Made by a program: the position numbers and the translations under genes. A stretch of DNA of 64,000 bases, taken from the NCBI GenBank assembly GCA_964384675.1, contig CAYLNK010000001.1:5518-69517 (forward strand), in the 5' to 3' direction. This stretch comes from an uncultured Holophagales bacterium. GTDB taxonomy: Bacteria > Acidobacteriota > Thermoanaerobaculia > UBA5066. Positions 13,489-40,882 of this stretch are shown piece by piece; the stretch's first letter is position 1; each line of letters opens with the position of its first letter. The notes beneath the pieces were generated by a model. The model searched no databases. It worked only from the letters and a program-made list of their open reading frames with translations, and was not told where the DNA came from.

Positions 13489-13573
13489 TGAAATGGGCGC
13501 TAGCCTCTTCGGCGATGGAGGCGACCCACGGGGAGAGCGCCCGCCGGAATGAGCCGTCGCGGATCGGCGCCGC

Positions 13574-18135: not shown

Positions 18136-18231
18136 GGAAGCCGGCGCGGGCCCTGGGGCGGGGCGAGGTCGAGGTGGACGATCACTGACGAGCCTCGAGC
18201 CGCGGCAGTAGCCACGGGTGCCGCGGCGGCC

Positions 18232-19992: not shown

Positions 19993-20091
19993 CGAGGCCG
20001 TGAGACTCGTGGGCCGTGGTGTAGCATCTGATGAACAACCGTTTGGGCACGAACGATCGCGGCGGAGCCGCAACTCGGGAGGAGCCGTCCC

Positions 20092-26000: not shown

Positions 26001-26706
26001 GTCCCTCTCCCCGAACGAGGGGGCCGGCGGCACGGCGAGCCTCACGCTCCAGCCGGGGACCCAGCTGATCATCCCGAGCGCCATCGACGACCTCCGGAAG
26101 CGCGGTCTCGCCATCGGCGCCCGCGACGCGGCCGGGTACGTCGGCGCGCTGCGGGTGACCGTGAGCAGCGCCGCCCTCGAGGACGTCTTCGCCGGGGCCC
26201 GCACCGCCTCGCCCTCTCCCGCCGGCGGACAGTTCGGTCTCTTCACGCCGGGTGTCTACGAGGGGCAGGAGGCCGGCGCCGCCGCCTACCTCTACGGGCT
26301 CCGGGCCGACTCGATCAATCGCTCCAACGTCGCGGTCGTCCACGCCGGGAGCGAGGACAGCTCACCCATCACCCTCGAGATGCAGGCGTACGACGGCGAC
26401 CGCCAGGGCGCCCCCGCGGGCTCGCCCTGGACCGCGACGCTCGTTCCGGGCCAGTGGTTCCAGGCCTCGAACTTCCTTTCGATCTCCGGGGTCTCGAACG
26501 GCTGGGTCAAGATCACCCGGACCGTCGGGGCCTCGCCCTGGATCGCTTACGGGGTCGTCAACGACGGCGGCAAGCCGGGCGAGCGTACGGGCGACGGCGC
26601 GTTCGTCCCCATGGTGACCGACATCCCCACGAATCCGCCGGCGACCGTCGCGGCGAGGTCAGGGCCGCCCGAGCCTCGTTCGAAGGTCGGGGCGCAGACT
26701 CGATGA
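20092..26706 (+). CDS. Giant secreted multidomain protein (2204 aa): Ig-like tandem repeats, PKD, CARDB-like and IPT/TIG domains, plus two C-terminal copies of the uncharacterised ~235-aa domain.
   Basis: RBS GGGAGGAG lies 8 nt upstream of ATG 20092. Signal peptide ARILLLAGVVLAGSRAHAQ. Four ~90-aa repeats follow (VTSITATPPTV.PGG.TVIAWTT.GAT.C.I.YTSASGGGG...TTTY.VTPY). PKD at IAWDFGDDGTVDS and VWDFGDGSAPASG. IPT/TIG at IDTVSPASGPTAGGTTITISGSRFG. The C-terminal repeats are at nt 25156-25866 and 25885-26621. Confidence 0.85.
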   Translation: MDLTTRGRRVASLARGPARILLLAGVVLAGSRAHAQTVTSFTANPLAVPPRGITQLSWTSTGATHCLLNWAAATASGTFGNGPANGGFTATMPDVAITFTLIPYAGAVAGTPKSVTVDVTVVTSITATPPTVTPGGSTVIAWTTTGATYCEIQYTSASGGGGAGNQPANGSRSYNPIETTTYKVTPYFGGVGGVGGVAGTPASVTVTVMEETLAVVTSITATPPTVSPGGATVIAWTTSGATSCTISYTSASGGGGQGPLPANGSLPYNPVETTTYTVTPYAGVTVGVPMSVTVTVTQAATPVMTSFTATPSTIVPGGSSVLSWTSTGAADVLLEPGIGPSPANGSVTVTPSATTTYKATAYTAMGVGSTPLTTTVTVGPASMKVPVVTNVRASQLPDGTGDVRIDYDLEVPAGATTAATSLLISPDGGQTFPIVPVAGALVGDAGAAIAAGARVIGWKASQTLPKVDAFYVAAVEARIDGTARAVSAPFRINLQNSKLPTAAFSFSPASPKAGESVTFKDESRLCPTSAACGASIAWDFGDDGTVDSRSATVAKTFAAGASVRVKLTATNSYGSDSTVRTVTVAPPAATPVVTRVRRTPAGVYLDSNAFDVELAADVTWNGAPGTVEFRLPGKPAVSKTGTATGASHKFRSPTDFKTGFTATEVTITAVNAAGARSAPFTESVWVFPWPSWLNGLGGVSVTQNGQGTTFSRTFQIPSSPLFGTITIPSAVPLLDGESGLTETYCRGTVSASTYGTASGYARCDTGFAVAGKEVDGNFTLDGTFSLGAPKGFKLDRLEITGSLSGTVKKEKKLGEVFPKLKKLEKKKIIGGPIKRLNETVTLSLEASPYLEANLLLVDRNGTVDWSGTLAAGLELKVMGRIKIIPGVQGRVWISGKGDVVLGFQAPVLRSYVLNAELGAALEINFFIYKDEFSAKVDVTCSGSATKAFGCKLDASTRPGEDLLAAGDTDGFRVIPRTYELFGPAVRVVDRPRLRTMAGTLTGTSGTSLVENVFAGAAPQLVPLGDGTSLLLFVEENLSLPRQQAPDVAWSILTNGSPSAPQKIAADTRLESEPVVARDAAGKVVAAWTRIKGSNAAAPVTDEDLAAFNKSREVVTSVYDVAARRWSEPVALTDDDAFDTGLVMGSDGQGRVVLSWLSIPDGSFESSADSPARVRSATWNGQSWSAVADAATGLVGARSLAGGFGNGKGALAVVRAVSDTSDSIDVVRFTAGTWSAPQGLPGAGQVNRSPAVAFDATGRLHVVWNRDGDLVHSIDLGSPAVVRQGSDSISLLGPVLAPTPDGGLVLVWTEAGKDRPAQLAGLVFDPKTGSWSRDLGLSADPGSMASAVALSVEPQGTVKISYLSTQAVSRDVTLEDGTVIAIPEEGRHDITVLEVPIVTDLAVTEGSAKTEPVRPAPGEAVVLTAEVRNSGSLPVATPVKVRVLVGANEATASTVGETVLQAPLPGGERRSVSVPYTFPASGGATFVVVDPENEVPEFTKANNRATVYTDNRPPVAVASADRTVGAVPLGVGFSASESADPDGDSLSYVWDFGDGSAPASGASVSHSFTRGGVRAVSLTVTDSRGASSTAVVTITAGESIPAIDTVSPASGPTAGGTTITISGSRFGAGARVLIGGAPARSVKVVDATTIVAETPSSEAAIVDVTVVSGDGAASTAPGVFQYVPGTATTEQLVPIVLDVDTGRDHFRSQATLTNRGTTPVTARLTYTPTFSDQKGGGSIDVTLGAGQQRVLDDVLGYLRAQGLPIPQASQAAPQGGTLALRFSGASSVDAVAMTTRTGAETAAPQPVGRAGLAYAGVPSSRGVTTEATLFGLRHDEKDRSNVAIANTTGDPLRVRVIAASGSGDGKKVVVRDALDLPPFGWAQLSSVLATAGITQGWVTVERTGTTGAFAVYGVVNDNGTGDGSYVLPTVRGVSGSSITVPALVETGAFESELVLANRGTRPALLTLRYLESLSPNEGAGGTASLTLQPGTQLIIPSAIDDLRKRGLAIGARDAAGYVGALRVTVSSAALEDVFAGARTASPSPAGGQFGLFTPGVYEGQEAGAAAYLYGLRADSINRSNVAVVHAGSEDSSPITLEMQAYDGDRQGAPAGSPWTATLVPGQWFQASNFLSISGVSNGWVKITRTVGASPWIAYGVVNDGGKPGERTGDGAFVPMVTDIPTNPPATVAARSGPPEPRSKVGAQTR
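20197..21235 (+). repeat. Intragenic tandem repeat array of about 280 nt (4 units) encoding Ig-like ~90-aa modules in the giant gene.
   Basis: Units begin near 20197, 20452, 20735 and 21001. Units 2 and 3 are about 80% identical at nucleotide level (gtgacgtcgatcaccgcgacaccTccgacggtgacccccggc vs gtgacgtcgatcaccgcgacgccTccgacggtcagccccggc). Confidence 0.6.
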
Positions 26707-27777: not shown

Positions 27778-28623
27778 TCAGCCCTTCACCGCGCCGCGCG
27801 TCAGCCCGCTCGCGATGCGCCGCTCGAAGAGGAGGACGAGGAGGACGAGCGGCACGGTCGCCACGACGACCGCCGCCGAGAGCTGTCCCCAGGGGACCTC
27901 GAACGTCGAGGAGCCCGTGACGCTCGCGATCCCGGCCGTCACGGTCTTCCTCGCGTCGCGGGTCAGGAACGTCAGCGCCAGCAGGAACTCGTTCCACGAG
28001 TAGATGAAGACGAGGATCGCCGCCGTGACCGCGGACGGCGCGGCGAGCGGCAGGTGGATCCGGAAGACGCGCCGCGCGGGACCGAGCCCGTCCAGGACGG
28101 CGGCCTCGTCGACCGCGCGGGGGATCTGGCGGAAGCCGCTCTCGAGGATCCAGACCGAGAGCGGGAGGTTGAGCAGCGCGTACGGGAGGATCAGGGCGAT
28201 CGGGTTGTTCAGCCACCCGAGCGCCCGCACGGCCTCGTACGTCGGGAAGAGGAGGAGGATCGGAGGAACGAACGCGAGCGCCAGGAGCGCCACGAGCCAG
28301 CGCTCCCGCGCCCGGACCGTGGCGCGGGTGAGCGCGCCGGCCGCCAGGGCGCCCAGGGTCACCGACAGCAGCGTCGACACCGCCGCAACCACCGCGCTGT
28401 TCCATAGGTACGTCGCGAACGGCTTCCTCGTGAACAGCGCCTCGACGTGGCGGAGCGTGGGCGGGCTCGGCAGGTAGACGGTCGGCACGCGGGTGATCTG
28501 GGCGTCCGGCTTCAACGCCGTCAGGACCTGCCAGACGCCGGGCGCCAGGCTCCAGACCACGAGGAGCCCGACGGCGAGGCCGGGAAGGAGCCGGCGCACC
28601 TTCCCTTCCGCAACGGACGTCAC
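27778..28623 (-). CDS. ABC sugar importer permease (MalG/UgpE-like).
   Basis: About 281 aa with 6 TM segments. EAA loop DEAAVLDGLGPARRVFRIHLPLAAP. GTG start (MTSVAEGKVRRLLPGLAVGLLVVWSL) overlaps the upstream stop (GTGA). The remainder of track ORF 27778..32055 is artefact. Confidence 0.85.
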   Translation of the reverse strand: MTSVAEGKVRRLLPGLAVGLLVVWSLAPGVWQVLTALKPDAQITRVPTVYLPSPPTLRHVEALFTRKPFATYLWNSAVVAAVSTLLSVTLGALAAGALTRATVRARERWLVALLALAFVPPILLLFPTYEAVRALGWLNNPIALILPYALLNLPLSVWILESGFRQIPRAVDEAAVLDGLGPARRVFRIHLPLAAPSAVTAAILVFIYSWNEFLLALTFLTRDARKTVTAGIASVTGSSTFEVPWGQLSAAVVVATVPLVLLVLLFERRIASGLTRGAVKG

Positions 28624-30635
28624 GTCCGCCTCCAGCGGGGTCGGGCGAGCCGCACCACCGCGCCCGCCAGGAGGGCCGCGGGCAGGAAGCCGTTGACCGC
28701 GATCCAGGCTCCGTGCGCGGGGTCGAGGTAGCGGAAGTAGGTCTGGAACGCGTAGAGAGAGACCGTCTCGGTGGAGCCGCCCGGGCCGCCGCCGGTCATC
28801 ACGTAGACGATGTCGAAGGCGCCGTACGCCTGGACCGCGCGGAAGAGCGCCGCCGCCAGGATCGACGGCGAAAGGAGCGGCAGGACGACGTGCCAAAAGC
28901 GCGGCCATGCGCCGAGCCCGTCCATCCGCGCGGCCTCCAGCACCTCGCCCGGGATCCCCTGCAGGCCGGCGAGGATGATCAGCGCGACGAATGGCGTTGT
29001 CTTCCAGACGTCGGCCACCACGAGGGCCGCCATCGCGGTGCCGGGCGAGCTCAGCCAGGCGATGGGCCGCGAAACGAGACCGAGGCGTCCGAGGAGGTCG
29101 TTCGCCACGCCGAAGGAATCGTTGAAGATCCAGGCCCACGCCAGGGCCATCACCGCGGTGGGGAGCGCCCAGGGCAGCAGCGTGAGGGCCCGTACGAGTC
29201 CCCGGCCGCGGAAGCGAAGGTGGAGGAGCAGCGCGATCCCGAGGCCGAGGAGCGTCTCGAGCCCCACCGACGCCGTCGTGAAGAGCGCGGTGTTCCGGAG
29301 CGACGAGAGGAACCGCCCGTCGCGCCACGGCCGGAGGGCTCCGCTCTCGGCCCCGCCCGGCGCCAGGAGGAGACGCGTCTCCCGGGCCGCGGCGCCGAGG
29401 GCCTCGGACGGGGTCGCGAGACCCGCGAGGGCGGCGCTCAGGTGTCGCTGGAGGATGTCCGACGCCATCGCGTAACGGGGGATCACGGGGCGCGCCAGCG
29501 CCGCCTCGTGGATCCGCAGAAGCTCGGGAAGGAACGGATTCGCGGCGAGGAGCGTCGGGTCGCGGTACGCCTCGGCGAGCGCGGGGGCGTAGCCCGTCTC
29601 GCGACAGAGAGCCCGCTGGCCGGGGAGCGACACCACGTGACGGATGAAGTCCATCGCGAGCCGGGGGTGACGGCTGAAGCGTGAGACGCCGAGGCCCCAG
29701 CCGCCGAGAGTCCCCGCGCTCTCGCCTCCCGGCGTGTGCACCATCGGGACGACCCCGACCTTGCCGGCCACCGGCGAACCGGGCGCCTGGGCGAGGCGCC
29801 AGACGTACGGCCAGTTGCGCAGGAAGACCGCGCGGCCGTCCTGGAAGAGCCGCCGGCTCTCGTCCTCCTTGTAGGCGGTCACACCGGGCGGGCTGATCGG
29901 GTCCTGCCCGGAGCGGCACCTGCGGAGGAACTCGAGCGCCTGGGTGGCCTCCTTCCGGTCGAGGCCGACCTCCAGCGTGTCGGGGTTGACCCAGAAGCCT
30001 CCGAAGCCGCGCAGGACCTCCTGGTAGTCGCACACCAGCCCCTCGTACTGGCTTCCTTGCCACACGAAGCCCCAGAGCGCGGGTGGCTTCTGGAGGGCGC
30101 GCGCGGCCCGCTCGAGGTCGTCGAACGTGAGCGGCGGGGGGAGCCCGGCGGTCTCCAGGAGGTCTCGGCGATAGAAGAGCACGCCGACGTCGGTGCGCAC
30201 CGGGATGCGGTACAGGTGCCCGCGATAGCGGCCCGCGTCCACCGCCGCGGGCAGGAGCCTCGCGAGGTCGCCGGCGGGGAAATCCGCCTCCAGCGGGAGC
30301 AGCCACCGCGCGAACTTGGGCGTCCACGTCACGTCCATGTAGACGAGGTCGAGGGACTCGTCGCCCGCCACGAGCGAGGACGTGTAGAGGTTCTCGCGCA
30401 GGTCCGTGGCGTTCGGACCCTCCACGACGTCCACCGCGACACCGGGACGCGACGCCTCGAAGTCCTTCGCGATCCGGACCCAGACGTCCCGGTCGCTCGC
30501 GAGGACCAGGAACGAGAGGCGGCGCGTCTCGCCGGGCGGCCCGTCCGCGCGGACGGGGAGGGCCGCTGCCACGATTGCCGCGGCGGCCAGGAGACGCGTC
30601 GCGAGTCGGCGAACGGTCGTGGCGCCGGGCGTCAT
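28620..30635 (-). CDS. Natural fusion of a family-1 extracellular solute-binding protein to a MalF/UgpA-type permease (671 aa).
   Basis: N-terminal signal peptide MTPGATTVRRLATRLLAAAAIVAAALPVRA and an SBP_bac_1-like domain of ~420 aa run uninterrupted into permease TM2-TM6. The permease part carries the EAA loop EAARMDGLGAWPRFWHVVLPLL. The usual TM1 and first periplasmic loop are absent. Confidence 0.75.
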   Translation of the reverse strand: MTPGATTVRRLATRLLAAAAIVAAALPVRADGPPGETRRLSFLVLASDRDVWVRIAKDFEASRPGVAVDVVEGPNATDLRENLYTSSLVAGDESLDLVYMDVTWTPKFARWLLPLEADFPAGDLARLLPAAVDAGRYRGHLYRIPVRTDVGVLFYRRDLLETAGLPPPLTFDDLERAARALQKPPALWGFVWQGSQYEGLVCDYQEVLRGFGGFWVNPDTLEVGLDRKEATQALEFLRRCRSGQDPISPPGVTAYKEDESRRLFQDGRAVFLRNWPYVWRLAQAPGSPVAGKVGVVPMVHTPGGESAGTLGGWGLGVSRFSRHPRLAMDFIRHVVSLPGQRALCRETGYAPALAEAYRDPTLLAANPFLPELLRIHEAALARPVIPRYAMASDILQRHLSAALAGLATPSEALGAAARETRLLLAPGGAESGALRPWRDGRFLSSLRNTALFTTASVGLETLLGLGIALLLHLRFRGRGLVRALTLLPWALPTAVMALAWAWIFNDSFGVANDLLGRLGLVSRPIAWLSSPGTAMAALVVADVWKTTPFVALIILAGLQGIPGEVLEAARMDGLGAWPRFWHVVLPLLSPSILAAALFRAVQAYGAFDIVYVMTGGGPGGSTETVSLYAFQTYFRYLDPAHGAWIAVNGFLPAALLAGAVVRLARPRWRRT

Positions 30636-30644
30636 GGCGCAACC

Positions 30645-32258
30645 CTACACGGCGGTCCCGGCAGCCGGCACCAGGTGGATCGTCCGGGTCGGGAACGCGA
30701 ACGAGCTGCCCTCCGACTCCACGATCGCCATCAGCTCGAGGAGCATCGCCTGGCGGATCCCCAGGAACTCCCCCCAATCGGTCGTGAGGAACCAGGCCAT
30801 GACGAGGACGTTCAGCGAGGAGTCGCCGAACCCCTGGAACGCCACGGTCACCGAATCGGGCCAGATCTTGGGGTGCTCGCGCAGCGCCGATTCGATCCGG
30901 GCGAGGATCCGGCGCATCTGGTCGGAGCTGGTGTCGTAGGTCAGGCCGATGTCCACCGCCAGCCGCAGCCGGTCGCGCTCGGCGAACGACTCGATGCGCT
31001 GCTCGGCGAGCCGTCCGTTCGGGATGGAGACGAGCGTGCGGTCCAGGGTGCGGATCCGCGACGACCGCAGGCCGATCCGTTCCACGACCCCGAAGACGTC
31101 TTCGACCTTCACGAGGTCTCCCTCGCGGAATGGCTGGTCGACCCCGATGGAGACGGAGCCGAAGAGGTGCTCCACCGTCTTCTGCGCCGCCAGCGCGAGG
31201 GCGAGGCCGCCGATTCCGAGCCCGGCGAGGAGGCTCGCCACCGGATAGCCCAGGGTCGCGAGGGCCGAAACGACGGCGAGCGCCGAGAGCAGGACCTTGG
31301 CGATCCGGGTCGAGAGAGGCACGAGCCCGCGGACCGAGGGCCGCTGCGCGGCCCACGTCGAGCCGGTGACCGCCTGGCCGGTGAGGTCCACCGTACGGAG
31401 CGCGGCCCAGAAGACCACGAGGAGGAGGCCGGAGACGCGGAGGCTCCCGACGAAACGCTGTGCCGGGGCGTAGAGCGAAAGGGCGGCGAGCGGAAACGGA
31501 ACGACGACGAGGCTCCAGGCGAGCGCCAGGGGGCGCCCCAGGCGTGCGAGGAGCGTGTCGTCGAGCGTCGACTCGGACCGCGCGGCCATGCGCCCGAGCA
31601 GCGTGGTCGTGACTCTCCCGAGCGGCAGTCCGGCGCCGTAGCTCAGGAGGAGGACGAGCGGGAGCGCGAGCCACTGCCACCACAGGAGCTCGCCCGGGCC
31701 CGGCCTGAGGAGCGGCGCCGGGAGGTGCTCGAGCACCCACCGGTTCCCCACGGCGCCGTACTGGACGTCGATCCGGCCGACGGTGGCACGCGTGAAGAGC
31801 CAGCGGGCTCCGTCCGGTCCCGAGCGCCTCACGAGCCTCACGGGCTGACGGACCCCGCCGGCGAAGGGGAGCGTGGTCAGCTCCTCGACGCCCGCCGGCA
31901 GCCCGTCGTCTTCTCGGCCCTCCGGGAGCGCCGAGAGGTCGTCGGGCTCGAGCCACACGTGGGCGTCCAGAACCGCTTTCAGCCGGCGCGCCAGCTCGGG
32001 GCCCCGGGACACGTCCGCCGCGGGAAGCTCGAGGTATCGGGCCGCCTCCTCCCACCGTCCCGCCCGCGCCAGCTCGAGATACGAGATCACGGCGGCACGC
32101 GGGGAATCGGGCGAAGGGCGGTCCGCGGGCTCGGTCGCGGCTGGCGTGGGCTCGGGAGGACCTGCCGCCCGGAGGGGCGGCCCGAGGATCACGGCGAGCG
32201 CCAGGACGCTCGCGACGCGCACGCGGCCATGGCGGGGGAGCCGAACGGGGGGCGTCAT
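30645..32258 (-). CDS. Mechanosensitive ion channel, MscS family, with an N-terminal periplasmic domain.
   Basis: 537 aa. Signal/TM then periplasmic region. TM helices lead into the MscS core (...GIGGLALALAAQKTVEHLFGSVSIGVDQPFREGDLVKVEDVFGVVERIGLRSSRIRTLDRTLVSIPNGRLA...). Confidence 0.85.
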   Translation of the reverse strand: MTPPVRLPRHGRVRVASVLALAVILGPPLRAAGPPEPTPAATEPADRPSPDSPRAAVISYLELARAGRWEEAARYLELPAADVSRGPELARRLKAVLDAHVWLEPDDLSALPEGREDDGLPAGVEELTTLPFAGGVRQPVRLVRRSGPDGARWLFTRATVGRIDVQYGAVGNRWVLEHLPAPLLRPGPGELLWWQWLALPLVLLLSYGAGLPLGRVTTTLLGRMAARSESTLDDTLLARLGRPLALAWSLVVVPFPLAALSLYAPAQRFVGSLRVSGLLLVVFWAALRTVDLTGQAVTGSTWAAQRPSVRGLVPLSTRIAKVLLSALAVVSALATLGYPVASLLAGLGIGGLALALAAQKTVEHLFGSVSIGVDQPFREGDLVKVEDVFGVVERIGLRSSRIRTLDRTLVSIPNGRLAEQRIESFAERDRLRLAVDIGLTYDTSSDQMRRILARIESALREHPKIWPDSVTVAFQGFGDSSLNVLVMAWFLTTDWGEFLGIRQAMLLELMAIVESEGSSFAFPTRTIHLVPAAGTAV

Positions 32259-32278: not shown

Positions 32279-32294
32279 TTCGTTTGACCTCAAA
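32279..32294. promoter_or_regulatory. Palindromic motif tCGTTTGAccTCAAAC, copy 2 of 3; about 25 nt upstream of the mscS start codon and just downstream of marR.
   Basis: Perfect inverted repeat GTTTGA-cc-TCAAAC, AT-rich, in the 67-nt mscS upstream region. Confidence 0.4.
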
Positions 32295-32325
32295 CCATCA
32301 CCGGCTCGGCTTCGCGACCGGCACC

Positions 32326-32871
32326 TCAGCCCGCGCCGGAGCCCTTCTCGTCGCGACGCTTTCCGGCGTCCCTCCGAAGCCCCCGTTCCAGGGACCCGGC
32401 GAGCGACGCCAGCACCTCGCTCGTGACGGCGATACTCTCGGCGGGAATACGGGCGAGGGCGCTCTCGACGGCCGCCTCGATCGTTCCGGCCGAGCGCCTG
32501 TCCACCGCACGCCCCTTGGCGGTCAAGCTGAAGAGCGCCAGGCGGCCATCCCGGGGATCGCCCTTTCGCTCGACGAAACCGCCCTTCTCCAGGCGCGCGA
32601 GGACCCCGCTGAGCGTGCTGGGGTGAAGGAGGATGGTCCGGGCGAGCCGCCCGGCCGGGATCCCCGGGAAGCTCCCGATGATCCGGATGGCCAGCCGCTG
32701 CGGCCCGGTGACGCCGACGGAGCGCAGCATCCGTTTGGAGCTTCGTTGCAGGCCGTGGTCGAGCGCCCACAGCAGCCGCAGGAACTCGAGGGCGCTCCCG
32801 AGCGGCGGGACGTCCCGCTCCGCGGCGGACGTCCGCCGGCGTGCGCCTGGGGGGGACTTCAGGGACGACAT
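32326..32871 (-). CDS. MarR-family transcriptional regulator.
   Basis: About 181 aa. Winged-HTH region ...LRLLWALDHGLQRSSKRMLRSVGVTGPQRLAIRIIGSFPGIPAGRLARTILLHPSTLSGVLARLEKGGFVERKGDPRDGRLALFSLTAKG... The 5' end of track ORF 32326..35478 is artefact. Confidence 0.8.
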   Translation of the reverse strand: MSSLKSPPGARRRTSAAERDVPPLGSALEFLRLLWALDHGLQRSSKRMLRSVGVTGPQRLAIRIIGSFPGIPAGRLARTILLHPSTLSGVLARLEKGGFVERKGDPRDGRLALFSLTAKGRAVDRRSAGTIEAAVESALARIPAESIAVTSEVLASLAGSLERGLRRDAGKRRDEKGSGAG

Positions 32872-34994
32872 GGCGCGAGGATTTTTGCACGCCGGATCGA
32901 GCTCGTTGCCCTGAGGGCGACCCCGGCGATTCCCGCTGCGACGGCCCACCAGCCGGGGAGGCTGAGCGGATCTCGAGGGGGCGCTGGCGGAGCGATCCGC
33001 CGCGGCAGACGCTCGAACACCACGAGCGCAGGAGGCTGCCCAACCTCTCCCAGCGGCCGGCCAACGCCGCCGGGGAAACGTCCCTCGAGGACGGGAAGCA
33101 GGTCCCTCTCGTCGTACAGCAGGACCGCGGCCGGCGGCGTGAGATCCAGGCGCCCGCTCAGGACGTCCTGGCGGGTCGCGTCGCGGCCGTTCTGGTCCGC
33201 CCCGAAGAAGCGGAACGGATGCTCGCTCCAGCGGAACTCGTGGCTCACGAGGTAGACCCGAGAGCCGGAGGGGAGAGCATCGACGTATCGCGCTCCCCGG
33301 GCGCGGGGACCTTCGCCGCTGCTGGCGAACCCGACGTAGACCTCCCAGTTCTGGATTCCGAGCGGGACCAGACCTGCGACCAGGGCCGCGACGCCGAGCC
33401 GCCGTGAGCTCGGGCCGTCGGGCAGGAGACCGGACACGGCCTGAACCGCCCCCAGCGCCGCGAGGAGAGACACCGCCGGAAGGGCGATGTTCAGGTGCGG
33501 CCAGTACGGCGGATCGGCCGTGAGGACGCCTCCCAGGAAGAGCGTCAGAAAGACCCACAGGACGGCGACCGCGCGCGACAAGTTCCTCGGCCGGGCCAGG
33601 GCGAAGCCGGTTCCGAGGACGAGGAAGATCGAGGCCGGCGCACTGACCATCGGACGTCGCAGGCTGAAGTGGGGGCTTCCGTCGCCGAACAGGTGGAACG
33701 TCAGGAAGGTGTCGCGCGCCTGGTAGAGGAGGACCTCTAGGACGCTGCCCGCCTCGTACTTCGCCATCGTGTGCGAGAGGACGTACGGGTTCCAGATCGC
33801 GACCTCGGTGCCGCGCCCGGCGAAGGATGCGAAATCGGTGGCCGGGATCGCGATCTTGGGACCGAAGACGACCAGCGTCGTCGTCGCGAGAAGCGTCCAG
33901 CCGCGCCAGGCCCGCCTGAACCCGCCCCGGTCGAAGAGCGCCTGCCAGAGGGCGGTGGCGGCGACCAGTACCGGCCCGACCCGGCTGGAGTCGTAGTTGA
34001 ACAGTCCGAACGACAGAACGGCTCCCGAGAGCGCGAACGCGAGCGGCGCCCCGGTCCTGAGCCCCGCGATGAGGAGCACCAGCGCGAGCGTGAGGCACAG
34101 CGTGGCGATCGGCCCGAACAGCGTACGGCTGAAGTGGATGTGGGTGTAGCTGATGGCGAGCAGCCCGGATGCGACGAGCCCTTCGGCTCGCCCGAACAGG
34201 GCCCGGCCGAGGAGGTACAGGATGGGGATGGTCGCGGTCCCGGCGAGCACCGAAGGCATGACGAGCCCGTAATAGTCCCGACCGAACAGGCGCATGCCGA
34301 GCGCGATCACCTGGTGCATGGAGGCGGGGTGCTGCGAGGCGGCCAGGCCCAGCCACCGGCCGGGCTCCGTCGCCATCATCTCGAGCGTGACGTTCCCCAT
34401 CAGGGCGATGTCGGGATGGACATGCGCCGGCAGGTCGGCGACGTCGTGGCAGCGGAGCCAGAAGCCCGCGAGCGTGACGACGGAGACGAGGCCCCACTCC
34501 CACGCCGGATGGCCCACGACCCCGAGGAAGCGCCGGTCTCTCAGGGCGATAGGGAGCAGGAGCAGGACGATCGCCGCCAGCCAGAGCCACCTCACTCCGG
34601 GTGACTCGCCGGAGCGGACGAAGAGCGTGACGGAGCTGGCGTAGCAAAGCCCCGAGGCCGCGAGCGCCGCCGCGATGGCGGGGCTCCGCGCGCCGCAGAT
34701 CGCCTGCGTCGGGACAGTCAGCGAGCCGATCGTCCCGTGCGCCTGAAACGCTCTGGTGGCCGCGGCGACTCCGGCCAGGAGAAGGAGAGAGGCCGCCGTG
34801 TAGCGGGGCGGCCAGTCCCAGGTCTGGGTGTCCCGGTTCCGGGTCAGGAGCTCGCCCGTGAACAGGTACTGGGCCACGAACGCGAGCGCCAGGGCGACCC
34901 CGATGAGCAACGGCCGCCGCCGGTCGGGGCCCGGCCCCACGGCAGCCAGGATGTTGCCCGGTGCGAAGACCGTCGCCTCGTCGCTGCTCCGCAC
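32859..34994 (-). CDS. Large polytopic membrane protein, putative GT-C-fold glycosyltransferase (ArnT/PMT/GT39-like), with a C-terminal periplasmic domain.
   Basis: 711 aa, at least 12 hydrophobic helices, with an Arg/Asp-rich first loop. It overlaps the marR start by about 13 nt. The family assignment is weak. Confidence 0.45.
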   Translation of the reverse strand: MRSSDEATVFAPGNILAAVGPGPDRRRPLLIGVALALAFVAQYLFTGELLTRNRDTQTWDWPPRYTAASLLLLAGVAAATRAFQAHGTIGSLTVPTQAICGARSPAIAAALAASGLCYASSVTLFVRSGESPGVRWLWLAAIVLLLLPIALRDRRFLGVVGHPAWEWGLVSVVTLAGFWLRCHDVADLPAHVHPDIALMGNVTLEMMATEPGRWLGLAASQHPASMHQVIALGMRLFGRDYYGLVMPSVLAGTATIPILYLLGRALFGRAEGLVASGLLAISYTHIHFSRTLFGPIATLCLTLALVLLIAGLRTGAPLAFALSGAVLSFGLFNYDSSRVGPVLVAATALWQALFDRGGFRRAWRGWTLLATTTLVVFGPKIAIPATDFASFAGRGTEVAIWNPYVLSHTMAKYEAGSVLEVLLYQARDTFLTFHLFGDGSPHFSLRRPMVSAPASIFLVLGTGFALARPRNLSRAVAVLWVFLTLFLGGVLTADPPYWPHLNIALPAVSLLAALGAVQAVSGLLPDGPSSRRLGVAALVAGLVPLGIQNWEVYVGFASSGEGPRARGARYVDALPSGSRVYLVSHEFRWSEHPFRFFGADQNGRDATRQDVLSGRLDLTPPAAVLLYDERDLLPVLEGRFPGGVGRPLGEVGQPPALVVFERLPRRIAPPAPPRDPLSLPGWWAVAAGIAGVALRATSSIRRAKILAPCRP

Positions 34995-35170
34995 GCCGGG
35001 TCAGCTGGCCGTCACGTGGAATTGGCCGCGCCGTCTCAGATGACCCCTGCGGGACGCGGTGCGACGCTCGCCCGCTGCCAGGAGCGGAGCGAACCGGGCC
35101 GGAGCGAAGGGAGCCGTCACCGGGTATGGCACGTTCTCGATCTCTCCTGGCGCGCGATCGTAGGCGCATT

Positions 35171-35186
35171 TCGTTTGATGTCAAAC
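35171..35186. promoter_or_regulatory. Palindromic motif TCGTTTGAtgTCAAAC, copy 3 of 3, in the divergent promoter region between the GT-C-like gene and the MpgS-like gene.
   Basis: Perfect inverted repeat GTTTGA-tg-TCAAAC, about 90 nt upstream of ATG 35276. Confidence 0.4.
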
Positions 35187-35275: not shown

Positions 35276-36496
35276 ATGAGCGATTTCGCGCAGAACGGCA
35301 TCGTCACCACGCTCACCCGGCTCGGGAACCGACCGCTCGTGGAGCTGGAGGACGCGCTCGTTCGCCACACCCGGCGCAACCGGGCCGCGCTCCTGATCCC
35401 CTGTCTCGTGTCGGAGCTCGACCGTCCGGCGCTCGCTCGCATTTGCGACGAGATCTCCCGGGCGCCGTACCTCGACACGGTCCTGATCTCCCTCGACCGG
35501 GCCGACGAGGCGGGCTACCGGCGTGCCCTGGACTACTTCCGGGCGGTCAAGCGGCGGACCGTCGTCCTGTGGAACGACGGTCCCGGGGTGACGACGCTGG
35601 TCGAGAAGCTGGCGCGAGCGGACCTCCAGCTCGGCGAGCGGGGAAAGGGCCGGGCCTGCTGGATGGCGTTCGGGTACCTCCTGGCGCAAGGGAACATCGA
35701 GTCCATCGCGCTCCACGACGCGGATGTCCTCGACTACGACCGCGCGACCCTGGCGCGGCTCCTCCTGCCCGTGGCCGATCCGCTCCTGACCTTCGACTTC
35801 TGCAAGGGCTACTACGCGCGGTTCACGGACCGCCTGAACGGCCGGGTCTCGCGTCTCTTCGTCGGACCGGTGCTCGGCGCGTTCCGGGCGCTCCTGGGGA
35901 CCAATCCGTACATCGAGTTCCTCTCCTCGTTCCGCTACCCTCTGGCGGGCGAGTTCGCGCTCTCGGCCGACCTCGCCCGGCAGGTGAGGGTGCCGGCGGA
36001 CTGGGGGCTCGAGATCGGGATGCTCTCCGAGGTTTTCCGGCACCGCTCGGCCCGGCGGATCTGCCAGGCCGACATCGCCGACCGCTACGACCACAAGCAC
36101 CAGTCCCTGTCGCAGGACGATCCGGCCGTGGGCCTCCACCGCATGGCGGCCGACATCGCCCAGCACCTGCTGCGAACGCTCGCCGCGGCGGACGTCGTCC
36201 TTTCGGAGGGGGGGCTCAAGTCCCTTCTGGCGTCGTACCAGCGCCGCGCCGAGGACGCGGCCTCGAGCTTCTACGCCCTGGCCAAGGTCAACGGGCTGGT
36301 GTTCCCGAGGCACGAGGAGGAGATGGCCATCTCCACCTTCGCGCGGGCCCTCCGGAGCGGCGTCGAGCAGTTCCAGCTCGATCCTCTCGGAGCGCCGCTC
36401 ATCCCGAACTGGGCGCGTGTGCTCTCGGCGGTTCCCGACGCCGGAGACCAGCTCCTCGAAGCGGTCGTCGCCGAGGGAGGCATCCTGAACGGCTGA
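35276..36496 (+). CDS. mpgS: GT55-like glycosyltransferase, putative mannosyl-3-phosphoglycerate (or glucosyl-3-phosphoglycerate) synthase.
   Basis: Blocks similar to archaeal/bacterial MPGS: ...ALLIPCLVSELDRPALARICDEISRAPYLDTVLISLD..., GKGRACWMAFGYLLAQGNIESIALHDADVLDYD (GKGEGM...FVDADN in MPGS) with a DXD motif. The N-terminal part of track ORF 34961.. is rejected. Confidence 0.6.
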   Translation: MSDFAQNGIVTTLTRLGNRPLVELEDALVRHTRRNRAALLIPCLVSELDRPALARICDEISRAPYLDTVLISLDRADEAGYRRALDYFRAVKRRTVVLWNDGPGVTTLVEKLARADLQLGERGKGRACWMAFGYLLAQGNIESIALHDADVLDYDRATLARLLLPVADPLLTFDFCKGYYARFTDRLNGRVSRLFVGPVLGAFRALLGTNPYIEFLSSFRYPLAGEFALSADLARQVRVPADWGLEIGMLSEVFRHRSARRICQADIADRYDHKHQSLSQDDPAVGLHRMAADIAQHLLRTLAAADVVLSEGGLKSLLASYQRRAEDAASSFYALAKVNGLVFPRHEEEMAISTFARALRSGVEQFQLDPLGAPLIPNWARVLSAVPDAGDQLLEAVVAEGGILNG

Positions 36497-36523
36497 GGTC
36501 CGAAGCGTCGCGAGGCAAACCGT

Positions 36524-37222
36524 TCAGACGTGGCGGATGCCGGACTCCTCCTCCTCGGCCCGCAGCTTCTTCTCGAGCCACGCCTTGGCCAGGTCGCGGC
36601 CTCCGAGCCCGAACGCGAGCGCGAAGGTCAGCGCCAGGGATCCGGCCGTGATCGAAAAGGCCGCCACCAGGATCGACCGCCCGACGCCGAGGTGGTCGAG
36701 CGCGGCGGCGACGAACGAGATCACGACGAACAGGTAAGCGGCCCGGGCGCCGGTCCGGGCCCAGGGCAGCCCCGAGTTGACGGCTCCGAGGAGGACGCTG
36801 CGTCTCACCAGCGCACCGACCCCGAACCCGACGATCGCCAGCAGCACCGCGCCGAGGAAGCGCGGCAGGAAGCCCACTCCTTCCGAGAGGACGTCGCGGA
36901 GCGCGCCCGGCTCGAGGGCGTTCACGCCGACGGCGAGCCCGACGACGACCGCGGTCCAGAAGGACGCCTCCCCGACGACGCGCTCCGGCTCGGCGCGCAG
37001 CCCCGCGGCCCTCAGGATCTGGCGCGACGACGAGGGCTCGCCGGCTCGCGCCCGGCGCCGCACGCGACCCACCGCCTGGAGGATGGCGCGGAGCAGGACG
37101 CCTGCCGCCAGACCGACCACGAGCGAGACCGCGAGGACGGTCACCGCCGGGACGATCGAGAGGAACGCGTCGAGGAGGCGCTCCAGGGCGAGGACGATCT
37201 GGGTACCCAGGTTCTTTGCCAT
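36524..37222 (-). CDS. Small integral membrane protein with repeated 'conserved TM helix' segments (mechanosensitive-channel-related family).
   Basis: About 232 aa. MAKNLGTQIVLALERLLDAFLSIVPAVTVLAVSLVVGLAAGVLLRAIL... RBS GGAGGTGA lies 5 nt upstream of the ATG. Start is 2 nt after the upstream gene's stop. The long 5' part of track ORF (to 38086) is rejected. Confidence 0.6.
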   Translation of the reverse strand: MAKNLGTQIVLALERLLDAFLSIVPAVTVLAVSLVVGLAAGVLLRAILQAVGRVRRRARAGEPSSSRQILRAAGLRAEPERVVGEASFWTAVVVGLAVGVNALEPGALRDVLSEGVGFLPRFLGAVLLAIVGFGVGALVRRSVLLGAVNSGLPWARTGARAAYLFVVISFVAAALDHLGVGRSILVAAFSITAGSLALTFALAFGLGGRDLAKAWLEKKLRAEEEESGIRHV

Positions 37223-37224
37223 GG

Positions 37225-38508
37225 TCACCTCCGGTCCGGGGCACCGCCCCAGAGCGCTTCGAGCTCGCTCTTGCCTCGCTCGTAGGCGAGGGCGAGCTCC
37301 TCGAGACGGGCCTCGGCGTCGTCGGCCGTGCCGGACTCCGTCTCGGCGACGAACGTCGCCACCTTTCCGAGGTACAACGGGACGAGAGAGCGGATGAGCG
37401 TGGCGGTCGGGAGCGCCCTCCTCCGGTATCCGGCGGCCGACTCCGCCACGATCCGGACCCAGGTTTCGTCGCCGAGCGACACCGCGGGCGCCTGCGCGGC
37501 CTCGCGAATGCCGTCGAGAGACGCCGGAGAGAGGAAGGCCTCCCAGACCGGCGGCAGGTCGTGAGCCGCCTGGCGGAACAGGGCCAGGAGCCGGTCGAGC
37601 CGCACGGGGACAGGCTCCAGCCCCACGGTGTACGGGAACCCGAAGACCGGGACGGCCGTCGAGCCGCGAACGCCCCTCCAGACCGCCTCGTGACGCTCCA
37701 TGAGCTGGAAGAGCGTCGAGACGACCTGGACCAGCATCGGCGAGAGGTCGGAGCCGGGGTCCTTCGGGTCGTGGATCTTCGCGCCGAGGAACGCCTGGGC
37801 GACCCGACGTCCCTCGGCCAGCGCGGTGGTCGTCATGAAGACGTCGATGCCGAACTGGGCGACGGGACCTTCCCAGTCCTCGAACTCGAGGAAGCGGGCC
37901 GCGAGGCCGCCGGAGAACCCGAAGTCGCCGCCGATCGGCTGGCGCACGCGCTTCCCGTAGAGCGCGCGCGTCAAGGGGTAGACGATCGTGTTGGTGATCG
38001 TCCCGTCGTACCGGTGCCGGCCGTACAGCGGCGCCACGAACTCGAAGCCGTGACGCGTGATCGGCTCGAGCAGGAGCTCGACCCACTCGGGCGTGATGCT
38101 CCGGAGGTCGCTGTCGACGACGCAGCAGGCGCGCGCCTCGAGCTCGGCGGCGATCCGGAAGATGGTCCGGAACGCGCTCCCCTTGCCCGGGATCCCGTGG
38201 TACGGGGTCACGATCCGCTCCGTCGACGTGGACGGGACCGCGTCCACGAGGATCTCGGCGAGGCTCCCCACCTCGGTCCGCTCGACGATCTCACGGGTCC
38301 GGTCGGTGGAGCCTCCGTCGGAGTTGACCAGGACGGCTCGGGCGTCGGGGAAGTGGCGGGCGAGTCCGGCCACGACGGCCCGGACGACGTGACCGATCGT
38401 CTGGGCGTTGTTGAAGGACGGGATCCCGACGAGGATGTCCGCCCGGCCGATGCGCGCCAGGGCGGAGGCCACCTCGGGGGAGAGCGGCGGCAGGCTGGCC
38501 CCGCTCAT
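37225..38508 (-). CDS. gpgS: GT81-like glycosyltransferase, glucosyl-3-phosphoglycerate synthase (GpgS)-like.
   Basis: GT-A fold N-terminus ILVGIPSFNNAQTIGHVV, then NSDGGSTDRTREIV...GKGSAF...VVDSDL (DXD), similar to mycobacterial GpgS. ATG start at 38508 overlaps the upstream MpgP stop (ATGA). Confidence 0.65.
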   Translation of the reverse strand: MSGASLPPLSPEVASALARIGRADILVGIPSFNNAQTIGHVVRAVVAGLARHFPDARAVLVNSDGGSTDRTREIVERTEVGSLAEILVDAVPSTSTERIVTPYHGIPGKGSAFRTIFRIAAELEARACCVVDSDLRSITPEWVELLLEPITRHGFEFVAPLYGRHRYDGTITNTIVYPLTRALYGKRVRQPIGGDFGFSGGLAARFLEFEDWEGPVAQFGIDVFMTTTALAEGRRVAQAFLGAKIHDPKDPGSDLSPMLVQVVSTLFQLMERHEAVWRGVRGSTAVPVFGFPYTVGLEPVPVRLDRLLALFRQAAHDLPPVWEAFLSPASLDGIREAAQAPAVSLGDETWVRIVAESAAGYRRRALPTATLIRSLVPLYLGKVATFVAETESGTADDAEARLEELALAYERGKSELEALWGGAPDRR

Positions 38509-39272
38509 CGAGACGCCCCGAGGAGGGACCTCACGGCCTCGGCCCATCCGGCCCCGCCCGGGAGGGCCGCGCGTCGGCCCGCCGGCACCTCGGCGGCGAG
38601 CCGGGGGTCGACGTCGCCCGCGGCGCCGGGGACGAGGACCGCGACGTCACAGAGAGCGAGGAATCCGGCGTCGTTCGGTGCGTCGCCCAGACCCGCGACG
38701 GGGCGGGCCACGATTCCCCCCGACAGGAGGAGGCGGACGGCGTCCTCCTTCCCGTGGTCGCCGGAGAGGTGCCAGAAGATCCCTCCCCGCGTCAGCCGAG
38801 TCCCCGGCAGCCGACCCGCGACCCGGGTGAGCTCGGGTCCCGCGTCGGGCGGCGCGAGGAACGGCAGGCCCCACCGGCGCGCGAGCATCGCCGGGAGACT
38901 CCGTTCGGGGAGGCCCGTCCGCGCCACGAGCTCGGCGGTCGACAAGGTGGAGACCGACCGCAAGGGCAGGCCGCAGAGCTCCGAGAGGCGTGAGAGGCGC
39001 TCTTGAAGGGCGCTCATGGGCAGTGCCGAAGGATGCACCTCGGCCCGGCCGGACGCCACGATGCCCGCACCGTTCTCGAAGCTGCCGATCCCGCCGAGAT
39101 CGAGCTCGGAGAGGAGATCGCGCAGCTCGAGCTCGGTCTTGCTGGTCAGCGGGACCACCGGGATGCCGCGCCTCCGGAGAGCGTCGACCGCCGCCCGGGC
39201 CTCGGCTCCGAGGACCCCTCCGCGGTCCAGGAGGGTACCGTCCAGGTCGGTGAGGACGGCGCCCAGCTCCAT
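38505..39272 (-). CDS. mpgP: HAD-IIB hydrolase, mannosyl-3-phosphoglycerate phosphatase family (MpgP/YedP/GpgP-like).
   Basis: MELGAVLTDLDGTLLDRGG...IPVVPLTSKTELE...GLGDAPNDAGFL. HAD motifs I, II and IV are arranged as in MPGP. Confidence 0.8.
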   Translation of the reverse strand: MELGAVLTDLDGTLLDRGGVLGAEARAAVDALRRRGIPVVPLTSKTELELRDLLSELDLGGIGSFENGAGIVASGRAEVHPSALPMSALQERLSRLSELCGLPLRSVSTLSTAELVARTGLPERSLPAMLARRWGLPFLAPPDAGPELTRVAGRLPGTRLTRGGIFWHLSGDHGKEDAVRLLLSGGIVARPVAGLGDAPNDAGFLALCDVAVLVPGAAGDVDPRLAAEVPAGRRAALPGGAGWAEAVRSLLGASR

Positions 39273-39275
39273 TCC

Positions 39276-39428
39276 TCAGATCCCCAGGATGAGCTTGATC
39301 ACGAACATCAGCGCGATCGTGCCGAAGAAGAAGACGGCGGCCTTGATCCGGTCCTTTCTCTCGTCCGTCTCTTCTCCCGCGGGACGCCCGGCGGGCTCCG
39401 GTCCGCTCTCTTGCTTCTGCGTCGACAT
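39276..39428 (-). CDS. Small (50 aa) tail-anchored membrane protein; not in the ORF track because it is below the length cutoff.
   Basis: MSTQKQESGPEPAGRPAGEETDERKDRIKAAVFFFGTIALMFVIKLILGI*. Strong RBS GAGGAGGG lies ~5 nt upstream of the ATG. The stop is 3 nt before the mpgP ATG. Charged N-terminus with a single C-terminal TM helix. Confidence 0.4.
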   Translation of the reverse strand: MSTQKQESGPEPAGRPAGEETDERKDRIKAAVFFFGTIALMFVIKLILGI

Positions 39429-39479
39429 CCGTCCCTCCTCACCGCCCGGCCGTAGCGACCGAGCGAGCCGTGAAACACG

Positions 39480-40739
39480 TCATCGCCCGCGGGCTTCGGG
39501 ATCGCCCGGGGAGTCGTCCGACATCGCTTCCGACACCAGGTCGGAGAGCGGTGTGCTTTTCCGTGGCCGCGAGACCATCGGAGTCTTCACCAGGAGCGCT
39601 CTGAGGGCGGGCGGCGAAAGGAACGTCGTCACGATCACCATCAGCGCGACCGAGCCGTAGAGGCCGCTCGAGAGCACTCCCGCCGCGAGCCCCAGCTGCG
39701 CGAAGATCAGCCCGACCTCCCCCCGGGGCACCATCCCCACACCGATGACGAGCCGGCGCAGGGGCCGCCCGAAGGCCGCGTAGCCGGCCAGGACCTTGCC
39801 GACGATCGCGACGAACGTGAGGAGCAGCCCGACCAGGAAATACGGCCGGGAGGCCGCGTCGAACGGGCTCAGGGCCTTCAGGTCGACGGCGGCCCCGACC
39901 GAGACGAAGAAGATCGGGATGAAGAACTGGGCGATGTCGTGGACCTCGTGCTCGATCTCCCGCCCTCGCTCGGTGCGAGCCAGGACGAGGCCCGCCGCGA
40001 ACGCACCGATGATGAGCGCGGAGCCGACGAGCTGAGCCAGCCACGCCAGCGCGAAGGCGTAGACGATGGAGGCGAAGAACAACGCCTTGGCCACCCGAAG
40101 GCGCGCGATCCACCGGATGAGGTACGGTGCGAGCCAGGAGCCGATCACGACCGCCAGGGCCACGAACCCGAAGGCGATCGCGAAGAGCTTGCCGATCCCG
40201 AAGGCGCTCATCTTCTCGCCCGCGGCCACCGCGCTCACGACCGCGAGGAGGACGAGCCCCAGGACGTCGTCGATCACAGCCGCGCCGAGGATCACCTGGG
40301 ACTCGTCGCTCTCGAGGTGCCCGAGGTCCGACAGGACGCGCGCGGTGATCCCGACGGAGGTCGCCGTGAGGGCCGCGCCGAGGAAGACGGCGACGGTGGG
40401 CGGGTAGCCGAGCAGCCATCCGACCCCGGCGCCTGCCGCGAACGGCAGGACCACGCCGACGAGGGCGACCGCCGACGAGGCCCCGCCCACCGAGAGCAGG
40501 CGCCGAAGATCGGTCTCGAGCCCGATCAGGAAGAGCAGCAGGACGACGCCGAGCTCCGACAGGAGATGCAGGACGGGCTGGTGCGGGTCCACGAGGTGCA
40601 GGCCGGAGACGCCGACGACGATCCCGCCGAGCATCTCCCCGAGGACGGCCGGCTGCCCGATCCGCTCGGCGAGCTCGCCGAACACCTTGGCGGCAACGAA
40701 GACGACCAGGAGGGAAAGGAGAAGATCGGCTGCGGTCAT
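39480..40739 (-). CDS. Monovalent cation:proton antiporter (CPA2 family, KefB/NapA-like Na+(K+)/H+ exchanger).
   Basis: 419 aa, about 12 TM helices. Characteristic segments GEMLGGIVVG, LLLFLIGLETDL and GAALTATSVGITARVL. The overlapping ORF 39439..40776 in another frame is rejected. Confidence 0.9.
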   Translation of the reverse strand: MTAADLLLSLLVVFVAAKVFGELAERIGQPAVLGEMLGGIVVGVSGLHLVDPHQPVLHLLSELGVVLLLFLIGLETDLRRLLSVGGASSAVALVGVVLPFAAGAGVGWLLGYPPTVAVFLGAALTATSVGITARVLSDLGHLESDESQVILGAAVIDDVLGLVLLAVVSAVAAGEKMSAFGIGKLFAIAFGFVALAVVIGSWLAPYLIRWIARLRVAKALFFASIVYAFALAWLAQLVGSALIIGAFAAGLVLARTERGREIEHEVHDIAQFFIPIFFVSVGAAVDLKALSPFDAASRPYFLVGLLLTFVAIVGKVLAGYAAFGRPLRRLVIGVGMVPRGEVGLIFAQLGLAAGVLSSGLYGSVALMVIVTTFLSPPALRALLVKTPMVSRPRKSTPLSDLVSEAMSDDSPGDPEARGR

Positions 40740-40764
40740 CGACGTTCGCTCCCATCGAATCCGG

Positions 40765-40787
40765 AGCGTTCCTCACGCTCCGGCTCT
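40765..40787. terminator. GC hairpin CCGGAGCG-ttcctca-CGCTCCGG between the DinB-like gene and the antiporter gene; possible terminator or attenuator.
   Basis: Perfect 8-bp inverted repeat with a 7-nt loop in the 143-nt intergenic gap. No T-tract. Confidence 0.25.
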
Positions 40788-40882
40788 CACGGCGCGAACG
40801 GCGGCCCGACCGTCTGCGGTTCCTGCGGGACGCCCGTCCCGCACCCGGCTCGATTGTAGGCCAGTCGTCCGGCGGCCCCGCC

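Follow-up and report, generated by a model that had tools for sequence, protein, structure and literature searches.

Synthesis of the compatible solute glucosylglycerate (GG) is, to our knowledge, known from only few cultured organisms. In Persephonella marina, a gpgS-gpgP-ggs cluster, which Costa et al. and Fernandes et al. reportedly described in 2007, is said to provide both a two-step route and a one-step route from ADP-glucose and D-glycerate. A scheme with two routes, in which glucosyl-3-phosphoglycerate synthase (GpgS), along with its phosphatase (GpgP), is combined with a glucosylglycerate synthase (GgS), has been described for Petrotoga (PMC3736172). Li+-I (nhaA-I) riboswitches have been shown to be ON switches for Li+, acting for the most part on ribosome access, and rare variants of the class sense Na+; associations with osmotic-stress genes are occasional, including that with trehalose-6-phosphate synthase, and a reach into osmolyte synthesis was proposed tentatively and for trehalose only (White et al., 2022; PMC9646797). 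In this study, we analyzed a stretch of 64,000 nucleotides (the window) from contig CAYLNK010000001.1 of an uncultured Holophagales bacterium and propose, as a fairly probable reading, that it carries a salt-stress locus composed of a Li+/Na+ riboswitch with its NapA-type antiporter and a GG synthesis cluster of the P. marina type, with two routes to one solute. The GG pathway itself is already known; new are the wiring, the riboswitch-led antiporter that abuts the cluster, the obligate membrane partner and a shared promoter module. We know of no earlier description of this cluster wiring or of the conserved membrane partner. The placement of the riboswitch suggests that alkali-cation-sensing RNA may reach past transporters to osmolyte biosynthesis.

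The locus comprises five genes on the minus strand and one on the plus strand of a window with a G+C content of ~72%. In the direction of transcription, the minus strand encodes a 419-aa CPA2 antiporter (39480-40739), a 50-aa small membrane protein (39276-39428), a 255-aa HAD phosphatase (38505-39272), a 427-aa glycosyltransferase (GT; 37225-38508) and a 232-aa transmembrane (TM)-helix protein (36524-37222), and the plus strand encodes a 406-aa transferase (35276-36496). All six open reading frames (ORFs) lie exactly where an earlier interpretation of the bare letters (the sequence-only reading) had placed them, and an independently annotated public contig of 100% identity has the same proteins. 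The G+C content of third codon positions (GC3) is gene-like in all six ORFs (0.86-0.94), including the 50-aa ORF (0.86). The tight packing claimed for the minus-strand genes holds for the 3-nt gap between the 50-aa ORF and the HAD gene, the ATGA overlap between the HAD and the GT gene and the 2-nt gap between the GT and the TM-helix gene, but the antiporter gene and the 50-aa ORF are spaced by 51 nt and not by 2-4 nt. The 406-aa gene had been taken for divergent; it is in fact convergent with the minus-strand genes, with stops at 36496 and 36524 that lie 27 nt tail-to-tail. No intrinsic terminator was found on the relevant strand, either between the convergent genes or within the operon. The idea of an osmoadaptation-type locus that unites a cation/proton antiporter, a phosphatase of the MpgP/GpgP family, glycosyl-glycerate GTs and a TM-helix protein was sound, but the earlier GT assignments need replacing, as they would have predicted wrong solutes.

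The locus resembles the P. marina cluster in its Methanococcoides-type GpgS, its HAD GpgP and a third GT clustered with them, and two related loci described below (L005 and L006) also have the order gpgS-gpgP-GT. In contrast to P. marina, gpgS is here inverted and convergent, a TM-helix gene follows the GT gene, the operon opens with a NapA-type antiporter, predicted to be under riboswitch control, and a membrane peptide of 50 aa, and the host, with its GC-rich (72%) genome, is not an Aquificae thermophile.

The strongest direct evidence for a control that responds to Li+ or Na+ is a riboswitch, missed by the sequence-only reading, that is predicted for the antiporter gene's 5' leader. A 51-nt element (40796-40846, minus strand) matches the full Rfam model RF03057 (positions 1-55) with 44 bits, where the gathering score is 37 (E 1.9e-5 when the whole window is searched). 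It includes the conserved CGGGCC loop, and 57 nt separate it from the AUG of the antiporter gene downstream. Orthologous antiporter genes, all metagenomic and of at least 72% identity, were collected from 80 loci, 19 of which were evaluable for a leader motif; 15 of these 19 have a riboswitch-like motif 80-180 nt upstream. By its score, its position in the leader and its conservation in orthologues, the element is assigned at the sequence level to the nhaA-I/Li+-I class, some variants of which respond to Na+. The predicted expression platform (40737-40795, minus strand) consists of the hairpin CCGGAGCG-N7-CGCUCCGG, a GGGAG Shine-Dalgarno sequence and the AUG. In the minimum-energy and suboptimal leader structures computed with RNAfold, both strands of the aptamer stem P2 can alternatively pair with GCGAACG and AUGACCG, and without P2 its strands are predicted to pair with a segment reaching from just past the Shine-Dalgarno sequence through the AUG. 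Pairing of the P2 strands to the start region would correspond to the expected OFF state, and the start site would become accessible once the ligand has stabilised P2. The CGGGCC loop, the antiporter downstream and the predicted ON switch by occlusion of the ribosome-binding site (RBS) are features shared with the published Li+-I and Na+-II classes of riboswitch (PMC9646797; White et al., 2022), but here the first gene is a NapA-type CPA2 gene and not nhaA, and the gene string continues into compatible-solute synthesis.

The antiporter matches PF00999 (1.1e-71, 242 bits), in line with its earlier CPA2 call, and TIGR00932 (1.3e-59). Its best relative in the PDB is Thermus NapA with 1.8e-66 over residues 3-386, whereas KefC reaches only 6e-22. 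A DD motif (VIDDVLG) is present at about residues 167-168 by hand count, and the protein is devoid of an RCK/KTN domain. By its PF00999 match, a likeness to NapA that spans the full length and the presence of the ion-binding DD motif, it is classed as a putative CPA2 Na+(Li+)/H+ antiporter of the NapA type. The gene that follows, preceded by the Shine-Dalgarno sequence GAGGAGGG, encodes a tail-anchored protein of 50 aa with a single TM segment (residues 26-50), for which no homologues were found beyond identical contigs.

Among ten related loci, none has a riboswitch before the GG genes, save for a copy 3 kb off in L051, a locus from a Syntrophorhabdaceae metagenome-assembled genome (MAG). This second nhaA-I element (10481-10542, minus strand, 48 bits) lies 3 kb from the GT-TM-helix gene pair and precedes a 121-aa pentapeptide-repeat gene, with a sodium:solute symporter and a TreY-like gene adjoining. 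Possibly it belongs to the variants from Deltaproteobacteria that have been described as sensing Na+.

The first enzyme of the two-step route is predicted to be the 406-aa protein of the plus strand. It matches NF040724 (GpgS_Meth), the model of the Methanococcoides/Persephonella-type GpgS, at 6e-94 with residues 3-399 on model positions 2-397 of 402. Its sole sequence relatives in the PDB are GT81 enzymes (GpgS and mannosyl-3-phosphoglycerate synthase, MpgS), and dozens of its homologues bear the JGI name glucosyl-3-phosphoglycerate synthase. The segments HDADVLD and NGRVS align to the DSD and GRVT motifs of GpgS; the G-R-V-S loop is of the type of 3-phosphoglycerate (3-PG) users, whereas the 427-aa protein has D-G-T-I-T like mannosylglycerate synthase (MGS). 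These comparisons make the 406-aa protein a distant member of the Methanococcoides/Persephonella-type GpgS family with a predicted 3-PG-using activity. An assignment as a GT55 MpgS, made in the sequence-only reading, was rejected, since neither PF09488 nor TIGR02460 matches even at E<=10 and the PDB relatives belong to GT81. The second step would be catalysed by the 255-aa protein, which scores above the cut-off of TIGR01484 (47.2 versus 41.8), has Thermus MpgP as a PDB relative (2e-16) and retains intact DxDGT (DLDGT) and GDxxND (GDAPND) motifs. It belongs by sequence to the HAD-IIB phosphatases of the MpgP/GpgP family, as had been read from the letters and as TIGR01486 (2e-38) supports, and is a predicted phosphatase of glucosyl- or mannosyl-3-phosphoglycerate (GPG or MPG).

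For the one-step route, the 427-aa transferase is the probable enzyme. Its AlphaFold2 model (pLDDT 89) shows, beyond the GT-A part, an extra C-terminal helical domain of ~150 aa. The top Foldseek match is Rhodothermus marinus MGS (GT78; PDB 2BO4, 2Y4J-M), the archetype of one-step GTs acting on glycerate, which superposes from end to end with its C-terminal helical domain included (TMq 0.70, TMt 0.78, E 1e-15), whereas GpgS and other GT81 structures superpose on the GT-A part alone (TMq 0.42). A family profile searched against the PDB also returns MGS first, at 8.6e-8, with GpgS at 6e-4. Residues K109, D132, D134, R164, T172, D222 and H246 align with MGS K76, D100, D102, R131 (which we take to be an acceptor ligand), T139, D192 and H217, and the profile alignment shows these seven residues to be invariant across the family. 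In MGS, K76, D100 and D192 form the sugar-binding network, D102 and H217 are metal ligands and T139 binds the glycerate carboxylate (PMC2581804). The likeness to MGS thus covers the DXD motif, the His metal ligand, the Lys/Asp sugar ligands and the Ile/Thr carboxylate site, and implies one-step chemistry. The 427-aa protein differs from MGS in an identity of only ~20%, a score below the PF21969 threshold, the replacement of MGS R218 and Y220 by D247 and K249, a likely glucose donor and a membrane-protein partner. Many of its homologues (57-85% identity) carry the JGI name glucosylglycerate synthase. Taking fold, residues and names together, we regard the 427-aa protein as an MGS-fold one-step synthase and probable Ggs (EC 2.4.1.268), which would make GG from NDP-glucose and D-glycerate.

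Other identities of the 427-aa protein were discarded. In the sequence-only reading it was a GT81 GpgS; PRK13915, the actinobacterial-type GpgS model, yields 56.9 bits where its cut-off asks for 262, a single domain of ~320 aa would be expected, and the MGS fold extends over the full length. GT55 has neither a Pfam or NCBIfam match nor a structure among the Foldseek top 50. MggA is ruled out on length and rarity, as MggA has 530 aa and MggA/MggB are rare, with about twelve homologues (PMC3736172). Both GTs are retained as glycosyl-glycerate enzymes, but neither the GT55 nor the GT81 label that they had been given is supported. The earlier argument that two 3-PG transferases with a single phosphatase could mean that both mannosylglycerate (MG) and GG are made falls as well, because one synthase is predicted to use 3-PG and to be paired with the phosphatase while the other is probably a phosphatase-independent one-step enzyme.

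The family of this one-step synthase proves widespread: 630 clusters at 50% identity were retrieved at E<=1e-30, with matches in at least 598 species of Acidobacteriota, Nitrospirota, Desulfobacterota, Thermotogota, Thermococci and others. Synteny was counted by tblastn in the subfamily with at least 52% identity to the 427-aa protein of the window (43 loci). A gpgS of the 406-aa type is found in the flank of 22 of the 43 loci, across phyla, and an MpgP-type HAD gene in that of 19. Clustering of the GT with both gpgS and gpgP is seen in the window, in L004-L007, L019 and L020, and in others. The order is gpgS-gpgP-GT-TM-helix in L006 and CPA2-gpgS-gpgP-GT-TM-helix in L005, where the stop of the CPA2 gene and the start of gpgS overlap; both loci have the 406-aa-type gene co-directional with HAD-GT-TM-helix. 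The order gpgS-GT-TM-helix-gpgP occurs in Acidobacteriota and Nitrospira. Near about half of the GT-TM-helix pairs gpgS is missing, and near about half gpgP is missing, which fits a self-sufficient, phosphatase-independent one-step enzyme. Homologues of the locus proteins are labelled Thermoanaerobaculia/Holophagales. In L089 (9067-15275; Thermoanaerobaculia, GT 84% identical), HAD-GT-TM-helix directly precedes an entire operon for the multisubunit Na+/H+ antiporter Mrp (Mnh) as well as another Na_H_antiport_3 gene. Members of the 427-aa family are also fused to a GpgS of the PRK13915 type (397-437 bits), in both orders (P0124, P0127 and P0197). Fusions to Usp and to TrkA_N (RCK, K+/NAD-sensing) domains exist in addition, P0140, P0253 and P0121 being listed with the fusions, and one protein of 1179 aa shows three matched stretches.

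The partner of the transferase is conserved in a strict manner. In all subfamily loci that were evaluable (39 of 39), a TM-helix gene of the same orientation lies directly 3' of the GT gene, compared to only 3 of 43 loci with a TM-helix gene in a more distant subfamily. Roughly four or five hydrophobic TM segments run through the 232-aa protein of the window, which matches PF05552 ("conserved TM helix") at 3e-4 with 21 bits against 22, and NF033912 at 9.5e-11 through its C-terminal half, which supports its call as a multi-pass TM-helix protein. Its homologues are all annotated as hypothetical, and a search of the PDB with its model gave no fold match, only chance matches with E>1. The cytoplasmic tail LEKKLRAEEE-x-GIRHV (36524-36580, minus strand) is nearly invariant in homologues down to 52% identity, and aligned homologues end in a GIRH motif, usually GIRHV (GINHL in L051); this near-invariance suggests a docking motif. 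Given the strict pairing of its gene with that of the transferase, the TM-helix protein may act as a tether, a sensor or a release valve, and the pair is a testable candidate for coupling membrane or ion sensing to solute synthesis or release. Compatible-solute clusters reportedly co-encode an MscS-type channel in other cases, such as the ectABCD-mscS cluster of Nitrosopumilus maritimus ascribed to Widderich et al. in 2016. In both settings a membrane protein from the sequence space of mechanosensitive channels is encoded right after the solute synthase, but the 232-aa protein, a putative channel at most, has PF05552 TM-helix repeats only, and the MscS pore helix and the beta and alpha-beta cytoplasmic domains (PF00924, PF21082) are not found in it. 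The idea of a truncated MscS, or of a relative of the MscS encoded in the window, was dismissed since the 232-aa protein has no similarity to the latter.

In the model that we favour, a rise of cytoplasmic Li+ or Na+ would let the ligand stabilise P2, by which the RBS and the start codon would be freed, the antiporter made and the cation expelled. On the two-step route, GpgS from the plus strand would join NDP-glucose and 3-PG, and the HAD GpgP would remove the phosphate; on the one-step route, the Ggs-like 427-aa enzyme would couple NDP-glucose directly to D-glycerate. The TM-helix protein would most likely tether or gate the transferase at the membrane, or serve as a release valve for the anionic solute. 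GG is anionic, contains no nitrogen and can stand in for glutamate as a counter-ion of K+ (PMC5381378), and Na+ export and GG synthesis would therefore be complementary. A bolder version, which we consider rather unlikely, holds that the Ggs-like GT and the TM-helix protein constitute a hitherto undescribed membrane-coupled unit with tension- or ion-sensing gating of solute synthesis or release, captured behind the Li+/Na+ riboswitch. If true, a single RNA sensor would turn on cation export and synthesis of the counter-solute jointly upon a rise of sodium.

One doubt concerns how far the two halves of the locus belong together. The riboswitch and the antiporter could be an independent unit that merely abuts the GG genes, so that there would be neither a five-gene operon nor a control of the solute by Na+ or Li+; we hold this for possible, if somewhat doubtful. 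Several observations point that way, some of which also weigh against the favoured model. While the riboswitch-like motif recurs at 15 of 19 evaluable antiporter orthologues, GG genes lie downstream at none of the 80 orthologous loci, whose neighbours vary; because of this, riboswitch and antiporter appear by synteny to be a self-contained module, with a junction to the GG genes that is specific to one lineage. In the close relatives L004, L089 and L090, HAD-GT-TM-helix begins without an antiporter. The 51-nt gap in the window could hold a separate promoter and comes before a strong, separate Shine-Dalgarno sequence, and the platform is predicted to be translational, which for a riboswitch on the first gene need not extend to the genes downstream. 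On the other hand, all five genes share a strand, the gap has no terminator-like site on the minus strand, the CPA2 stop overlaps the gpgS start in L005 and the Mrp operon comes right after the TM-helix gene in L089, which together suggest selection for linkage. In the favoured model, the antiporter and the GG genes would be co-transcribed.

The second question concerns the product of the 427-aa enzyme, whose sugar and acceptor specificity is a prediction. It could be a one-step MG synthase resembling MGS, or a promiscuous enzyme, such that GG would be made by GpgS and GpgP and MG in one step; the two solutes of the sequence-only reading would then be reached with other enzymes. MGS is its closest solved structure by full-length fold and by sequence profile, the PF21969 (MGS_GT) match is weak, at 24.8 against a gathering score of 27, and the sugar-discriminating loop QPIGGD has Gly, as does PLGGE of the mannose-using MGS, in place of the Ser of glucose-specific GpgS. 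This Gly has been argued to admit the axial O2 of mannose (PMC2581804), and mannose could therefore serve as donor. Yet the identity to MGS is as low as stated above, R218 and Y220 are exchanged, the orthology-based JGI names speak of glucosylglycerate and not of mannosylglycerate synthase, the family is found together with GpgS, and the neighbourhoods that were looked at showed no mannose-pathway genes that caught notice, all of which renders this alternative improbable. Alternatively, the 427-aa GT could act after GpgS and transfer a second hexose onto GPG or GG, giving a diglycosyl-glycerate (glucosylglucosylglycerate or mannosylglucosylglycerate), with the HAD enzyme dephosphorylating the final intermediate. 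P. marina reportedly accumulates glucosylglucosylglycerate, the synthase of which is said to be unknown. The fusions with a bona fide GpgS in both orders, as are seen more often between enzymes of consecutive steps than between those of alternative routes, and the tight operon linkage to gpgS and gpgP in L005 and L006 would suit such a role; it is opposed by the preserved carboxylate-binding Thr/Ile and pocket of MGS, an enzyme with a small-acid acceptor, by the many loci without GpgS or HAD nearby, and by the rarity of MggA/MggB compared to the wide spread of the 427-aa family, and we give it little credence. The preferred GG scheme has weak points of its own besides the Gly loop, the PF21969 score and the fusions. 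The 406-aa protein reaches 315 bits on NF040724, where the equivalog cut-off is 700, and the 255-aa protein stays below the subfamily cut-off of TIGR01486 (2.1e-38, 132 versus 164.75). The probable orthology of the 427-aa protein to Ggs is deduced from the JGI names of homologues, from the fold and the conserved residues, and from synteny. Persephonella and Petrotoga mobilis were not among the top 80 genome loci of a scan seeded with a Thermotogota-like homologue, which returned Petrotogales and other MAGs, and the clusters of the ten most AT-rich family representatives contained no Aquificae.

Beyond the locus, the genes for sucrose-phosphate synthase/phosphatase (SPS/SPP), sucrose synthase (SuSy), ClC and MscS that the sequence-only reading had noted nearby are all real, and a palindromic promoter module recurs among them. 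The palindrome GTTTGAnnTCAAAC has three copies in the window against 0.05 expected. Each copy is embedded in a directional module of ~40 nt with a -35 box TTGAnn, a spacer of 16-17 nt and TAnnnT; the consensus GAT-N-GTTTGAnnTCAAAyGAA-N-GCGC-TAnnnT joins the -35 box, the palindrome and the -10 box. One copy (13476-13489, plus strand) stands ahead of the SPS/SPP-SuSy-ClC genes. Copy b (32282-32295, minus strand) lies 24 nt before the start codon of mscS, with the ABC sugar transporter downstream. Copy c (GTTTGACATCAAAC; module 35157-35186, minus strand, palindrome 35173-35186) has TTGACA, 16 nt and TACGAT and precedes PMT_2-marR. This copy had been assigned to the promoter of the 406-aa gene; it does lie 90 nt upstream of this gpgS but faces away, towards PMT_2-marR. 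The palindrome was not found in the loci of relatives. The MarR protein encoded between copies b and c (32326-32871, minus strand) is a candidate binder of the palindrome and regulator, and the three modules together look like a small osmoregulon. Sucrose synthesis, ClC, MscS and the ABC importer under a shared promoter/operator would complete an osmoadaptation island.

The genes behind these modules are organized as follows. On the plus strand, an SPS-SPP fusion (13574-15745), an overlapping SuSy gene (15730-18135) and a ClC-CBS gene, whose reading frame opens at 18136 immediately past the SuSy stop, form one string (13574-19992); it is unusual for sucrose synthesis genes to be accompanied by one for a chloride channel. 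On the minus strand, 27778-32258 encodes an MscS of 537 aa followed by an ABC system whose first gene encodes a solute-binding/permease fusion of 671 aa and whose further genes encode another permease and a MalK-like ATPase. This system may import compatible solutes or sugars and may be governed by the promoter module of mscS. Between mscS and the GG cluster, a 711-aa PMT_2 (GT39/ArnT-like) membrane glycosyltransferase (32859-34994, minus strand) overlaps marR in the same direction. A large plus-strand ORF (20035-26706; ~2223 aa from stop to stop) with CARDB, PKD and TIG domains probably encodes an unrelated secreted or surface protein.

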